Source of the DNA: Nitrospinota bacterium
Lineage (GTDB): Bacteria > UBA8248
Length of the DNA: 34,271 nucleotides
Assembly (NCBI GenBank): GCA_046581755.1
Contig: JAYGFR010000203.1
Coordinates: 1 to 34,271, forward strand
Direction of reading: 5' to 3'
Shown here one piece after another: positions 21,001 to 27,000 of the stretch; positions within the stretch are counted from its first letter, which is position 1; every line of letters begins with the position of its first letter. Position numbers: made by a program.

Positions 21001-24000
21001 TTGAACGGATGGCCCTCTTTTCTATTCGATAAGATTGAACTCGGCCTGTACGATTTTATGTATCCGGGAAAAATTCCTCCTAACGAGGCTCGTATAGAGG
21101 CCGCCTACAGCATGCTGACCCCGGACTCGCCCGATCACAGCCTGATCCTGGAGGTGCAAGGGGAGCGTCTGTGCCGGGCTCGCTTCAAGCGGGGGGAGAC
21201 GTGCTTCATTGCGGTCCACGAGGGCAGCGTGGTCAGCTACATCTGGGGCTCGCGGGGCAAGGTGGGCGTCGATGAAATCTCGATGGCCGTCCAGACCGCG
21301 CCAAAAGAGATGTATCTCTACGATGCGTTCACGCTGGAGCCCTGGCGGGGAAACAACCTATACCCCGCCGTCCTCCAGCGGGCACTGGAATTCGGCAGGG
21401 ACCTGGGCTTGACGCGATCGACGATTTTCGTTGAGGCGCGCAACACCCCCTCCATCCGGGGCGTCACGAAGGGGGGGTTCACGCTGTTTCAGACGCTTCT
21501 TCTGAAAACTTTGCTCGGATTCGGCAAATCCAAGCTCTTGCCCCATCTCGAGGGTCACGCCCCGGCCGAATTCGTCCCCCTCTAGCCCAGGGTTTGACGT
21601 CCCGGGCGGGGGACTTTTAATATCTTTGGATTTTCCGGCGGCACCGGGAATGCCGCCATCTTGCGCTTTTTCAAGGAGGGAAAATGCCCCCCTCATGCTC
21701 CGCGCCTACTCCGTGCTACACGGTGGCGTCCGCATCCTACGGCGACGAGCCGCTTCGGGTGTGCGTATTCTCCAGCCCCGAAGACATCCTCCGGCTCGCG
21801 CCCGAGTGGCGCGCGCTCATGGAGGCGAGCAGCCACGCCCACCCCTTCTACGACCCCGCCTGGCACCATACCTGGTGGAAGCATCTGGGCTCGGGCGAGG
21901 TTCACATCTGCACGGTGGGCCCCGAGACCGGGCCGCCCATCGCCATCGCCCCCCTCACTCTCCGCGAGGACGGTGTAATGCGCTTCATCGGCGGCGAGGA
22001 CCTGACGGACTACCTCGATATCCTCGCCCGCGACGGAGCCCACGCCGAGGCCTGGCGGGCGCTGCTCGAATACCTGAACAGCCCGGAGGCCCCGCCGTGG
22101 AAAGAGTTGATCCTCCATGGCGTTCCCGCCGGATCGCCAACAGCCGAATTTTTCCGCGCCCCGGCGGGAGGCGCCACCGTAGAGCCGGAGGAGGTCTGCC
22201 CGGTGATTCCGCTTCCGGATTCCTGGGAGGCGTACACCGGTATGCTCGGCCAGCGCGAGGAGCGCGAAATGCGCCGAAAAATCCGCAAGGCGCAGATGGA
22301 GCCGGGCCTCGAAATTCACCGCACGCTCAACGAAAAAGACCTGGAAAACGACCTGGACGAATTTTTCCGCCTCCATGAATTGAGCCAGCCCCAAAAGGCA
22401 GAGTTTTGGAACTGCCCGCGCCGCGCCTTTTTCAGGGAGATGGCCAAGGAGATGCTCGCTCTTGGCTGGCTGGATCTGACCATCATGCGCGTAGACGGGC
22501 ATCCGGTCGCCGCGAATTTCGCTCTCGACTACGGAGACCGGATCTACCTGTACAACTCGGGCTTCGACCCCGGGGAGCGGGAGTTGAGCGCGGGCCTGGT
22601 TCTCCTTGCGCAAGACATCGAGCATGCCATCCAGGCCGGGCGGACCTCGTTCGACATGCTCCGGGGGAATGAACCCTACAAGTACCGCTACGCGGCCCAG
22701 GATGAACCCATCGTGCGGATTCGCCTCGCCCGGAAAGCCTCATGACCGCTCCCTCCCGGCTCCGCGCCGCGCTGCTCTCGATGCACACCGACCCGCTGGG
22801 ATCGTTGGGCGGGGATGTCTCGGGGGGCATGAACGTCTACATCCGGGAGACGGCGCGGGTCCTGCCCGCGCTCGGGGTGGAGGCGGACATATTCACACGG
22901 GCCTCGGATGACGGCTCTCCCTCCATCGCCAATCTGGCCCCTGGCGTGCGCCTCATCCGGATTCCGGCCGGCCCGAAAAATCCCCTCGAAAAAAACGAGC
23001 AGGCCTGCTTCACAGGCGAATTCGCCTCGGGCATCCACGCCTTCGCCGAATCCCAGGAGGGCGGGTACGACATCGTATCTTCCCATTACTGGCTATCCGC
23101 CCTGGCGGGGCAAGAACTCGCCGATGGGTGGGGTACGCCGCTCATCCACCGGTTTCACACCCTCGCGGCCCGGAAGAACGAATCGCTGCCGGTGGAGGCG
23201 GACCGGGAGACAGGAGATCGCGCTGCGGCCGAAATCCGGATTGCCCAACGGGCGGACGCTCTTATCGCCTCGACGGGCGCGGAGGCCGCCGATCTGGCGC
23301 ACACCCTGGGGGCGGACAAATCGAAGGTCCATATCATCCCCTGCGGCGTGGACCCGGGGAACTTCTCGCCCCTCCCTCGGACAGAGGCACGGGCAGCCCT
23401 CGGGTGGAGCGATGAGGAGCGGATTCTCCTCAACATCGGGAGGATCGAACCCGTAAAAGGGCTCGACAGGCTGGTCCGGGCAATCGCCACCATGAAAAAG
23501 AGCCGGCCCGGCTTCTCCATTGCCGCCGTTCATGTAGGGGGCGAGGTTCGCGCCAGCGCCCGGGCGGAAAATACCGGTTACCGGCCTGAAGATTTTTCCT
23601 CCTCCGTCCAGCGGGAAGAAGTCGCTCGAATCCTCGAAATCGCGGCCGAAGCGGGGGCCTCCGAAAACATCCGCTTCGAGGGGCCAAAATCCCAGGACGA
23701 CCTCCGCGTCTATTACTCCGCCGCGGATGCGCTGACCATCTCATCGCGCTACGAGACGTTCAGCCTCGTTGCACTCGAGGCGGCGGCCTGTGGCCTGCCT
23801 GCGGTGGCCTTTCGCACTGGGGGCCTTGCGGAAGCCATCGAGGCGGACCGGACCGGTCTGCTCGTCCCCGAGGGCGACATCGCAGCGTATGCCGCTGCGA
23901 CGCTGAAAATCACCGCCTCGCCAGACCTTCGAGATCGGCTGGGGACGCAGGCCCGGAGGCGGGCGCGTGCGTTTTCCTGGACGGAGACCGCATCGAAGGA

Positions 24001-27000
24001 AGCCGCCGTGTGGAAAAATCTGCTTCGCCGGAGCGTTCCCGCAGTTCCGGCCTGAGAAAATGGAGAGAGCATTTTGATTCGATCCGAATTTAAAAACGTC
24101 CTCGTTTTCATGGCCCACCACGACGATGCCGAACTCGGCGCCGGCGGGAGCATCGCCCGCTGGGTGGAGAACGGCGCGGTCGTCCGCACCGTCATCTGCA
24201 CAAATGGAGACAAGGGAACGAAAAATAATATCCCACCCTACAAGCTCACCGAAACCCGCGAGAAAGAACAACTCGCTGCCTCCAAGGCGCTGGGCGTGAA
24301 AGAAACCCTGTTTTTGCGCCACCGGGACGGGGAACTTGAGGATACGCGGGCGTTCCGGAATCAGCTGGCCTTCATCATCCGCCATTTCAAGCCCGACACC
24401 TTGGTCGCGCACGACCCCTGGCTGCCCCATTACTCGCATCCCGATCATCAGGCGGTGGGCCACGCCGCGTTCAAGGGCGTCATTTACGCGAGAGACCATC
24501 ACTTTCTCCCCGAGCTGACCTACGCCGGAATCGAGGCGCATCATACGAATACGCTCATCTACACCCGATCCACCGAGCCGAACTATTTCATCGATATTTC
24601 CGGGACCATCCAGAAAAAAATCAGGGCCATCAAAGCCCATAAAAGCCAGATTCACAATCCGCGCTCAACCGAGAAGCGGGTCCGCATCCGCGCCGTAGAG
24701 GCCGGCCGCCTCGCCGGCCTCCCCATGGCCGAAACTTTCACCATCAAGCGGATGCGCTAGACCCACGCCGGAAGTGGGGGCCGGAATGCCGTATTCCGAA
24801 TGGGCGCCGGAGGACCGGGCCGGCGCGCACATCATGGCCGGCTTCGAGGGGAACTCTCCGCCGCCGCCGCTGCTCGATCGAATCCGCAAGGGCCGGGTGG
24901 GCTGCGTGGTTCTTTTCACGCGCAACATCGAAAGCAGCGGGCAAACGCTCGAACTCACCCACTCCCTCCAGTGCGCCGCCGCCGAATCCCCCTACGCCGG
25001 GCCGCTGCTGATCGCCATCGACCAGGAGGGCGGCCGCGTGAGCCGGCTATCGGAGGATTTCACGCGCTTTCCCGCCGCCCGCGTATTCGGGCGGATCGGG
25101 GATCCGGAGCTCGTTTCGCGGTGCGCGCGCGCGTGTGCGGCCGAGCTCCGCGCCTCGGGCATCAACGCGAACTTCGCACCCGTCCTCGACATTCTGACCA
25201 ACCCGGACTGCGAGGTGATCGGCGACCGGGCCTATGGCGATGACGCGGAGCTCGTTTCCGCGATGGGCGCCGCCGCGATCCAGGGCCTCCAGGCGGGCGG
25301 GGTGGCCGCCTGGGCAAAGCATTTTCCGGGCATCGGGGACATGGCGCCCGACCCGCACGAAACGCTCCCTTCCTCCGGCCTTTCCCTCGGCGCCCTACGG
25401 GGGCGCGAACTCAAGCCCTTCCGCGCGGCCATGGACCCTCGAACGGGCGTGGCCGGCGTCATGGCGGCTCATGCCCTCTACGAGCAAATCGATCCCGCCC
25501 GCCCTGCGAGCCAATCGCCGTGTATCATGGAAGGATTGTTGCGGGACGAACTCGGCTACGGCGGAGTGGCCATCACGGACGACCTCGACATGGGCGCCAT
25601 CGATGAGCCCGCCGAGGGGGCGCTTTTGAGCCTGAGAGCGGGAGCGGACATCGCGCTCATCTGCCATTCGGAGGCGGCCCAGGAGCGGGCGCATGGAGAA
25701 ATTGTGCGCGCGATCCGCTACAAGGACATTCCGCCGGACGCCGAGGAACGCTCTCTCGGGCGGATCGGCAGCCTGAAGGCACGCTACGCCGGCCCCGGAC
25801 GCCCGTTTCCCGGGCCGGGGGGCACCGGAGTTCTCCAAGAGGAGAGAAAAAAAATCGTGGGATGTCCCGCCCACCGGGCGCTTCTGGATGAGGTCATGCG
25901 CCGGGCGGGAAATGAAGAGCGTTCGTGAGAAACGGCTACCCGTCGCCATCTGCCATTTTTTGAATTTTGGCGGCTACGGCAGGGTACAATATTTATCCGA
26001 ATTGTTGTATTATCATTGCAACCAGTTGAAATCGAATATTTTCGAGGTCGTATTATTTTACTTAAAAGTGCGGCTGCCGTTGTTTCGAAACACGAAACGA
26101 TTTTTATAACCTCTGGCGGGTAAAAAGTTGGCGAATATCCTCGTTGCCGACAAAGATGAAACCATGCGGGAGCTGTTGGACGTCTCCCTGAGGCGGACCA
26201 ACCACGACGTCAAAATGGCCGACAACGGGGAAAAAACGCTCGACATGATCCGGGAGGAATCTTTCGACCTCGTCATTATCGACTATTCCCTGTCGGCCCT
26301 GGAAATTCTCCAGCGCCTCCGGGAAAACGACGACGAAATCCCTCATTTCATGATCTTGAGCGCAAAGAGCACCCCCGATTCCATCAGGGAATGCGTCGAG
26401 GCCGGGGCGAAGGATTACGTGGTGAAACCGTTCAACCTGCTGGTCCTGATCAAGCGGATCGAACTTCTTCTGCAGAAAGCCCAAAAAGGATTGTCCGGAA
26501 CCCAACCCTGACGGCGGCCCCGGCTACACGTTGAAGCGAACGTGCATGATCTCCCCGTCGCGCACCTCGTAGTCCCTGCCCTCGACGCGGAGGGTGCCCC
26601 GTTCCCGGGCCGCCGCCATCGAGCCCGCATCCATGAAATCCTCGTATGAAACCACCTCGGCGCGGATAAACCCCCGCTCCAGGTCCGAGTGAATCGTCCC
26701 CGCCGCCTGGAGGGCTGGCGCTCCCCTCGGAATGGGCCAGGCGCGCACCTCGTCCTCGCCCACCGTCATAAAACACTGGAGACCGAGGAGCTCGAAGGAG
26801 GCGTGAATCACCCGGTCACGCGCCGGCCGCTCAAGGCCGTAATCGGCTAAAAAAATTTCCCGCTCGTCATCTTCCAGCTCGGCCAATTCTTCTTCGAGCC
26901 GGGCGCCGACCACGATGGGGGCCACCTCCCCATCCACCGCCGGCAGGCCGAACGCTCCGGCGGCATCGCCGATCCGGTCCTCGCCTACGTTGAGAACGGA

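Follow-up and report, generated by a model that had tools for sequence, protein, structure and literature searches.

A four-gene cluster on contig JAYGFR010000203.1 of a Nitrospinota bacterium, lying within the analysed window of 34,271 nucleotides, probably makes a mycothiol-like Cys-GlcN-inositol thiol, with a FemX-fold enzyme of the PF13480 family standing in for MshC as a Cys-tRNA-dependent ligase. Gene content, linkage, motifs, the fold match of a predicted model and a complementary distribution were observed, and the donor, the amino acid, the product and each catalytic step are deduced from them. Passages of Hiras 2018 (PMC6282198) report mycothiol genes as confined to the Actinobacteria, the only group given there as holding a complete mshA–D set. 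No published report of a FemX-type/MshA-like module was found in a search of main texts in a literature collection with few subscription journals.

Four intact open reading frames follow one another on the forward (+) strand, as the genome-wide survey's note had described. They encode a single-domain GNAT acetyltransferase (21001..21585), the PF13480 double-GNAT protein, a proposed aminoacyl(Cys)-tRNA:glucosaminide ligase (21684..22745), an MshA-like GT4 glycosyltransferase (22742..24055) and a PIG-L/LmbE de-N-acetylase (24074..24760), with an ATGA overlap joining the second and third genes. An AmgK-like APH-family kinase (19952..20989, +; 97.8 bits against a cut-off of 550) lies upstream and a NagZ beta-N-acetylhexosaminidase (24774..25928, +; NF003740, 219.6 bits, above the cut-off of 207) downstream, both being lineage-local neighbours. 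The run is headed by an AP_endonuc_2 TIM-barrel gene (19067..19892, +) with a one-base frameshift near 19692 in the assembly, where the base is missing from one low-depth contig of run X5. A promoter scan of the run (2 against 1.4) and a terminator scan (12 against 7.7) both stayed close to the chance level; contigs from RNA runs cover scattered pieces at depth 2–6, which demonstrates neither transcription nor a single transcript.

The glycosyltransferase has MshA (TIGR03449) as its best NCBIfam match, at 330.8 bits over 8–427, with the next family at 100 bits. This bears out the full-length match below the cut-off (462.5) that had been noted before, a threshold exceeded by none of the 51 genomes of the class and none of 301 Chloroflexota. 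The best PDB match is the C. glutamicum enzyme (3C48/3C4Q, 228.5 bits), followed by 6KIH (190.8). In common with actinobacterial MshA the protein has H15, G28-G29-M30-N31, K84, H115-Y116-W117, H139-T140, R160 and E338, and we take the roles of the acceptor-site residues to be those in C. glutamicum MshA; a sister GT4 group differs at this acceptor motif, with GGQN and H[A/S]. The Asp20 position is not kept, V26 occurring where the actinobacterial enzymes have Asp, and the protein forms a long, early branch in the MshA tree, in which actinobacterial MshA is nested among the MshA-like enzymes (SH-aLRT 98 against the outgroup). On sequence grounds, the enzyme likely makes GlcNAc-inositol-phosphate.

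The PF13480 protein (110 bits; Pfam name Acetyltransf_6) has no solved relative by sequence, two spurious linker matches aside, and Atlas searches led only to generic GNAT and PF13480 clusters. A new predicted model (pLDDT 94.6) reproduced the FemX fold (Foldseek E 2.6e-13) and the likeness to Sbb17 and Sba18 recorded by the survey, the best Foldseek matches being FemX, Sba18, Sbb17 and MprF. Among the best nine VIA matches (Z 17–22.4), eight are titled FemX, FemA, Sbb17, L-PGS or MprF and one has a title without a function; the top match has Z 22.4 and rmsd 3.6 with 295 aligned. Here tRNA-dependent folds reach Z 17–22 at rmsd 3.4–4.1, whereas CoA-type tandem GNATs reach Z 14–16.5 at rmsd 5.3–7.4 (MshD, 14.2), so that, for the predicted model, tRNA-dependent transferases rank above CoA-dependent tandem GNATs as the nearer neighbours. 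High-ranked matches include the amino-sugar ligases Sba18 and Sbb17 bound to streptothrisamine. With Orf11, Sba18 and Sbb17 of streptothricin-type antibiotics the protein shares the double-GNAT fold and probably a basic helix and a C-terminal aromatic-Lys pair, and the amide on an amino sugar that passages of PMC12945691 describe for those enzymes is proposed for this one; it differs in being only 14–15% identical to them, in being encoded by a mostly single-copy core gene and in its proposed Cys-tRNA donor, whereas their genes belong to antibiotic clusters and the donor of Orf11 is Gly-tRNA. Unlike FemX, FemA and MprF, it has no lipid II, UDP-MurNAc-peptide or membrane-domain context, its proposed acceptor being a soluble glucosaminide.

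R198, K199 and R201 on the basic helix (190–204) are invariant or nearly so, as are Y332-K333 on helix 331–334, where K333 is, from its position, the putative equivalent of FemX Lys305. Residues specific to the subfamily are E195, K199, F227, S234, K238, F250, N291 and S292. As Y332-K333 is invariant in distant paralogs too, the pair is uninformative on the amino acid loaded; paralogs also match the model of BspF, described as an acyltransferase, weakly. Apparent PF13480–MshA fusions were rejected, the long profile matches being tandem double PF13480 proteins, as was one in L092, in which the two matches occupy different frames.

The deacetylase scores higher on BshB1 (107.7 bits) than on BshB2 (83.7) or MshB (43.3), all under the cut-offs, and two further PIG-L paralogs occur in the genome. 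Its earlier assignment to a BshB/MshB family holds as regards PIG-L, and the protein is nearer BshB1 than MshB. The small GNAT (PF00583, 29.8 bits) matches no NCBIfam family and not MshD, and its Atlas look-alikes are generic GNATs; it is possibly an accessory, perhaps N-acylating, enzyme and is not MshD, contrary to the place it had been given. The proposal that the operon mirrors MshA-B-C-D is too neat as a one-to-one correspondence.

Within the class the PF13480 gene is present in 48 and the MshA-like gene in 49 of 51 genomes, and the two adjoin in all 48 that carry both, a conservation far in excess of chance that confirms the neighbourhood reported earlier. Of the GTDB loci that were scored, most of them from Chloroflexota, 54 of 76 also have the two genes side by side; the route is not special to the phylum of this organism, most carriers found being Chloroflexota. 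The PIG-L gene lies downstream of the MshA-like gene in 8/8 fetched class loci, and linkage extends to 13 of 80 GTDB loci. Corresponding counts are 6/8 and 2/80 (both from the organism's own lineage) for the small GNAT, 6/8 and 2/80 for the AmgK-like gene, and 3/8 and 2/80 for NagZ. All three are missing from the 78 distant GTDB loci, which for amgK and nagZ speaks against the survey's own worry that the operon might modify cell-wall sugars.

The survey's statement that MshC, BshC and GshB are lacking was upheld. In this genome (completeness 96.5%) the MshC model finds one locus, a full-length CysRS; this is the only such gene here and in 13/13 class genomes, with no short CysRS paralog of the MshC kind. 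BshC was found neither in the genome nor, with one exception, among 80 carriers of the PF13480/MshA-like genes, and five class genomes gave no GshB above cut-off, no MshD (best 27 of 163 bits) and no mycothione reductase Mtr (best 274 of 636). A GCS2-family ligase occurs in three of these five, the present genome not among them, and the gene after the SCO1664-like gene was rejected as a hidden ligase, as it looks like an exported lipoprotein. Mycothiol-type user genes were again found: an MscR-like protein in four of the five (481–502 bits, under the cut-off of 512.9; absent from the fifth), TIGR03083 above cut-off in four and TIGR03843 in all five. In five FemX-only Chloroflexota, MscR-like scores reach at most 328 bits. 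Full-length Ino1-like proteins occur in 5/5 class genomes (416–441 bits; actinobacterial cut-off 638), the two copies in this genome agreeing with the two reported, and an IMPase gene adjoins the DUF3090/SCO1664 pair.

The cluster resembles actinomycetotal mycothiol biosynthesis (Ino1, MshA, MshA2, MshB, MshC, MshD) in its MshA-type GT4 enzyme with acceptor motif, its Ino1 and PIG-L proteins, and the MscR-like protein, TIGR03083 proteins and DUF3090/SCO1664 pair with its nearby IMPase gene. It differs in that its lineage has no MshC, MshD or Mtr, the deacetylase resembles BshB1, mshA is paired with the gene of a FemX-fold enzyme, and all msh scores fall under family cut-offs. With the bacillithiol pathway (BshA, BshB, BshC) it shares a GT4 enzyme, a PIG-L enzyme whose best match is BshB1 and a cysteine-adding step, predicted here; it departs from that pathway in the rarity of BshC among carriers and in the MshA-like protein's score on BshA (80.5 of 273.7 bits, against 331 on MshA).

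The claim that the FemX-type enzyme takes the place of MshC is supported by its distribution, which is nearly complementary to that of short MshC-like proteins. Of 301 Chloroflexota genomes, 204 carry the MshA-like gene. In 65 of these the FemX-type gene occurs alone and in 127 an MshC-scoring gene does; eight have both, one of which is the centre genome, chosen for carrying both, and four have neither, three of these carrying a diverged FemX-type gene. None of the Chloroflexota MshC-like proteins reaches the cut-off of 485 bits, the highest score being 410, and they score equally on cysS; the MshC model also gives some Chloroflexota CysRS up to about 345 bits. Borderline matches were fetched in part: all seven of those fetched from 13 in FemX-positive genomes were full CysRS, and all seven from 12 in FemX-negative genomes were short MshC-like proteins. 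Stops inside three MshC-like matches were dismissed, as they lie upstream of intact ORFs. Eight FemX-positive genomes had no MshA-like match at 1e-70, and only one of these, G141, has the gene after all.

The swap of FemX-type gene and MshC recurs beside a different glycosyltransferase. As predicted beforehand, a diverged FemX-type member is carried by 20/20 genomes that have TIGR03843 yet lack all three genes, against 0/18 MshC-type genomes without MshA, and the GT4 enzyme beside it has a 50–56% ortholog in 5/5 MshC-type genomes. Weak TIGR03449 matches in MshC-type genomes without MshA were rejected as MshA, being another GT4 with an HTWY motif. MshD exceeds its cut-off in 1/40 MshC-type and 0/40 FemX-type genomes, and as it is rare in both, the swap partner is MshC and not MshD. 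Kin in these counts are not independent; five label changes are needed on the MshA tree, and multiple switches are not significant by the AU test, which fails to reject one FemX-type clade (p 0.41). Since the FemX-type gene and MshC are nearly mutually exclusive, the cluster likely builds its mycothiol-like thiol from the cysteine of charged tRNA.

The proposed pathway would start from inositol phosphate made by Ino1, whose genes lie elsewhere in the genome; with UDP-GlcNAc as donor, the MshA-like enzyme would attach GlcNAc to it. The phosphate would be removed by a phosphatase, for which the IMPase by the DUF3090/SCO1664 pair is a candidate, and the PIG-L enzyme would deacetylate the product to GlcN-inositol, likely freeing the glucosamine amine. 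Cys-tRNA(Cys) may then dock on the basic helix of the PF13480 enzyme, which, in place of the ATP-dependent ligase MshC, would form an amide on the sugar amine, with Lys333 acting as Lys305 would in FemX, to give Cys-GlcN-Ins; any N-acylation might fall to the small GNAT.

It is unlikely, though worth weighing, that the enzyme is tRNA-dependent and instead loads Gly, Ala or Ser on GlcN-inositol, giving a precursor of a non-thiol solute or lipid head group. The amino acids handled by its structural neighbours Sba18/Sbb17, FemX and MprF are small or basic, passages of PMC12945691 describe Gly, Ala, Ser and Leu donors and name no Cys-tRNA GNAT, Mtr and MshD are missing from five class genomes, and eight Chloroflexota have both enzymes; this would, however, leave unexplained why, beside either of two glycosyltransferases, the enzyme and a cysteine-type ligase nearly exclude each other, and why MscR-like and TIGR03083 proteins occur in a class that lacks MshC, BshC and GshB. 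An acyl-CoA-dependent tandem GNAT, MshD-like or other, with cysteine ligated by the housekeeping CysRS or another enzyme, is improbable: the Pfam name, the tandem GNAT build of MshD, the weak BspF matches of paralogs and the CysRS scores on the MshC model are in keeping with it, but tRNA-dependent folds match better than CoA-type ones, the near-exclusion of the PF13480 gene is with MshC, and MshC-type genomes also lack MshD (39/40 under cut-off) yet have no PF13480 gene.

We give very little credence to an operon that modifies or recycles cell-wall amino sugars with AmgK and NagZ, unrelated to thiols. Both genes lie in the run and FemX acts on peptidoglycan precursors; yet neither they nor the small GNAT follow the pair to distant loci, NagZ is patchy even in the class, the glycosyltransferase has an MshA acceptor motif, and the exclusion of MshC would go unexplained. 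A variant of the preferred reading, not exclusive of it, in which cysteine comes from tRNA and the aglycone is not myo-inositol, giving a new Cys-GlcN-X thiol, is likewise a slim prospect. The long early branch with V26, the occurrence, in another lineage, of the same ligase subfamily next to a GT4 other than MshA and the BshB1-like deacetylase would suit it, while the Ino1-like genes of all five class genomes and the remaining acceptor residues argue for inositol.

On balance, this PF13480 subfamily, as a Cys-tRNA-dependent replacement for MshC, would appear to be the first Cys-tRNA-dependent FemX-type ligase and a third way, after MshC and BshC, to cysteinyl-glucosamine thiols. It would provide the main small thiol in the organism's class and in much of the Chloroflexota (Anaerolineae, Dehalococcoidia), Methylomirabilota and others and, as at least two different glycosyltransferases are used, at least two thiols; together with the short MshC-like proteins in about half of the sampled Chloroflexota, this would extend mycothiol-type chemistry well beyond the Actinomycetota. 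According to passages of PMC6336425, an unidentified thiol was recorded in Chloroflexus aurantiacus decades ago. If true, the finding would name the missing thiol pathway of several large, mostly uncultured phyla, explain what some members of the very large, unassigned PF13480 ('CelD/BcsL') family do, and make Cys-tRNA a further donor for FemX-type enzymes, tying redox buffering to the pool of charged tRNA.

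The gene run on the forward strand opens with an AP_endonuc_2 gene (Pfam; 19067-19892), followed by an AmgK-like kinase (19952-20989), a single-domain GNAT (21001-21585), the PF13480 or FemX-type protein (21684-22745), an MshA-like GT4 glycosyltransferase (22742-24055) whose start is overlapped by the stop of the PF13480 gene, a PIG-L deacetylase (24074-24760) and NagZ (24774-25928). The top NCBIfam model for the PIG-L deacetylase is BshB1 (107.7 bits), MshB scoring just 43 bits. A one-base frameshift near 19692 in the AP_endonuc_2 gene is a likely assembly error, since relatives have it intact and the extra base is missing from one low-depth contig. 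The stretch at 21594-21623, after the small GNAT and ahead of the PF13480 gene, has a hairpin together with a weak site resembling a promoter, with counts near chance. Elsewhere in the window, a SIS plus CBS protein (328-1329), KdsD-like going by domain content, is in line with an LPS-bearing host.

Among the 51 genomes of the class, 48 carry the PF13480 gene and 49 the MshA-like gene, the two standing side by side and co-oriented in 48/48, 2-Mb genomes included. Close relatives of the PF13480 protein are from Nitrospinota (NCBI names), with Chloroflexota as the next ring; the best 80 of at least 589 GTDB loci are mainly from Chloroflexota, and also from Rokubacteria/Methylomirabilota, one Nitrospiraceae and one Thermodesulfobacteriota. 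Linkage was scored on 76 of these 80, 4 being dropped by a filter: the MshA-like gene lies at most 1.1 kb downstream in 54, and 4 of the other 22 stop too early to judge. PIG-L is present in 13 of the best 80, and AmgK, NagZ and the small GNAT only in 2 own-lineage loci; in 8 fetched class loci the counts are 8 for PIG-L, 6 each for AmgK and GNAT, and 3 for NagZ. On these linkage counts, the conserved operon of the genome-wide survey's note contracts to a core of PF13480 and MshA-like genes, with PIG-L often added.

The GT4 reaches 330.8 bits on the TIGR03449 model, below the cut of 462.5, with the next family at 100 bits; among proteins of solved structure it matches the C. glutamicum enzyme best (3C48/3C4Q, 228.5 bits), then Tll1590 (6KIH, 190.8). 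In an alignment of 91 sequences, the motifs GGMN and HT are common to own-class (11), FemX-linked (51), MshC-type Chloroflexota (20) and actinobacterial MshA (3) enzymes, whereas GGQN and H[A/S] take their place in six sister enzymes, which come from Proteobacteria, Cyanobacteria and Streptomyces plasmids. From the C. glutamicum structure, we take the GGMN/HT residues to be inositol phosphate binders. A quick tree separates the four GGMN/HT groups from the sister enzymes (SH-aLRT 98), and within them actinobacterial MshA nests next to the MshC-type Chloroflexota enzymes. Ino1-like genes occur in 5/5 class genomes.

The structure model of the PF13480 protein (65 sequences, pLDDT 94.6, pTM 0.90) matches FemX (E 2.6e-13), Sba18 and Sbb17 (with streptothrisamine), and MprF. 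The nine best rows of a wide structure search (Z 17.0-22.4, rmsd 3.4-4.1) comprise FemX, FemA, Sbb17, L-PGS and MprF together with a single protein of unknown function; tandem GNATs of the CoA type rank below (Z 14.2-16.5, rmsd 5.3-7.4), MshD at 14.2. A basic helix (R198, K199, R201) and a Y332-K333 pair are conserved, and their positions in the model suggest equivalence to the basic helix and aromatic-Lys-type pair of FemX and DhpH-C, as described in PMC12945691. The YK pair also occurs in distant PF13480 paralogs, and is thus uninformative on the amino acid. Specific to the MshA-linked subfamily are E195, K199, F227, S234, K238, F250, N291 and S292 (62 linked sequences against 26 paralog halves). 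The paralogs weakly match BspF, described in abstracts as an acetyl/crotonyl enzyme.

The reported lack of MshC, BshC and GshB is borne out: in the own genome and 13/13 class genomes the single MshC-model match is at CysRS level, GshB is over cut in 0/5 class genomes, and BshC is over cut in one of 80 carriers, G008 (9% contaminated). That BshC (G008:C4:351959-353494) shares a contig with the FemX-type operon, about 28 kb apart. GCS2-family ligases occur in 3/5 class genomes, with none in the own genome.

Because 3 of 50 FemX-locus genomes held an additional short, intact MshC-like gene, a sample of 301 Chloroflexota genomes with completeness of at least 92% was searched, the top 5-7 candidates per genome being scored. 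The FemX-type gene was found in 81, the MshA-like gene in 204, and a match to the MshC model with E no higher than 1e-96 in 176 (no higher than 1e-104 in 140), all MshC-like proteins used as yardstick lying below the family cut. Of the 204 MshA-like-positive genomes, 73 also carry the FemX-type gene, just 8 of them with a strong MshC-like match, so that 8 genomes have both ligases; of 13 further borderline matches, 7 were fetched, and all were full CysRS with the C-terminal domain. The 131 without the FemX-type gene have an MshC-scoring gene in 127, strong in 115; of the 12 borderline cases, the 7 fetched were all short. Leaving out the centre genome and the four unpublished ones (G125, G220, G247, G300) gives 64 with the FemX-type gene only, 7 with both and 124 with an MshC-scoring gene only, and Fisher p values for the exclusion overstate it, kin being non-independent. 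Neither ligase was found in 4/204, though relaxing the threshold brings up a diverged FemX-type gene in 3 of these, and the MshA-like gene is still absent in 7 of the 8 FemX-positive, MshA-negative genomes. Five label changes are needed on the MshA tree, but the AU test does not reject a single clade of FemX-type enzymes (p-AU 0.41), so the pattern may stem from few events.

The short proteins carry a CG[I/V]TPY[D/E] motif and, in 7 of the 11 compared over this region, an ERG..P stretch, presumably corresponding to the MshC signature ERGGDP, where CysRS mostly has GAR[V/I]. Such CysRS paralogs without the C-terminal domain (L094:4940-6190, L095:486-1742, L096:5187-6419, L111-L122) occur in about 140-150 of the 301, mostly with MshA-like and without MshD, and likely represent the classical desacetyl-mycothiol route outside Actinomycetota. 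Some Dehalococcoidia genomes encode an additional CysRS-like protein that is longer by ~250 residues at its C-terminus (L098:2347-4686, L099:2120-6109). MshD was over cut in 0/5 class, 0/40 FemX-only and 1/40 MshC-type Chloroflexota genomes, which identifies MshC as the exclusion partner, and the usual product may therefore be unacetylated.

Twenty sampled genomes have TIGR03843, an mshC-neighbour family, without FemX-type, MshC-like or MshA-like genes. As predicted beforehand, all 20 contain a diverged FemX-type gene, against 0/18 MshC-type genomes lacking MshA. A non-MshA GT4 lies directly downstream in 11 of 12 diverged-ligase loci returned; the twelfth, from G208 of the 'neither' group, has a true MshA-like gene there. 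Since this GT4 also has a 50-56% ortholog in 5/5 MshC-type genomes tested, the two ligases, judged by sequence, exchange on two glycosyltransferases. One Chloroflexota lineage pairs either ligase with such a GT4 (L193:2617-3819, L205:4527-5744, L224-L228), whose best matches stay below cut (191 bits for TIGR03088, 137 for BshA); this hints that the aglycone of its Cys-GlcN thiol may be a different one.

As to thiol users and related families, TIGR03083 is over cut in 4/5 class genomes and TIGR03843 in 5/5. MscR-like proteins (481-502 bits in 4/5; next paralog <300) stay below the cut of 512.9, and score at most 328 bits in five FemX-only Chloroflexota. DUF3090 lies upstream of the TIGR03843 gene with an IMPase gene nearby, a candidate enzyme for the MshA2 step; at G000:C75:33336-38167 (L159:4337-9168), DUF3090, SCO1664-family, lipoprotein-like and inositol monophosphatase genes cluster.

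The system has a working likeness to mycothiol synthesis, but departs from it on MshC, MshD and Mtr, the last sought in class genomes with none found. A literature search returned no report of a PF13480/MshA-like module. In earlier work, mshA-D are placed only in Actinobacteria (Hiras 2018, PMC6282198), an unidentified thiol is noted in Chloroflexus aurantiacus (Newton and Rawat 2019, PMC6336425), and MshC and Fem-type ligases are discussed without this module (PMC2922099). Counting against the proposed route are the below-cut scores of the yardstick MshC-like proteins, the eight genomes with both ligases, the tree result, the seven FemX-positive genomes lacking an MshA-like gene and the weak BspF match of the paralogs. 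Overall, it is reasonably probable that the FemX-type enzyme is a Cys-tRNA-dependent replacement for MshC, which would give Cys-GlcN-inositol.
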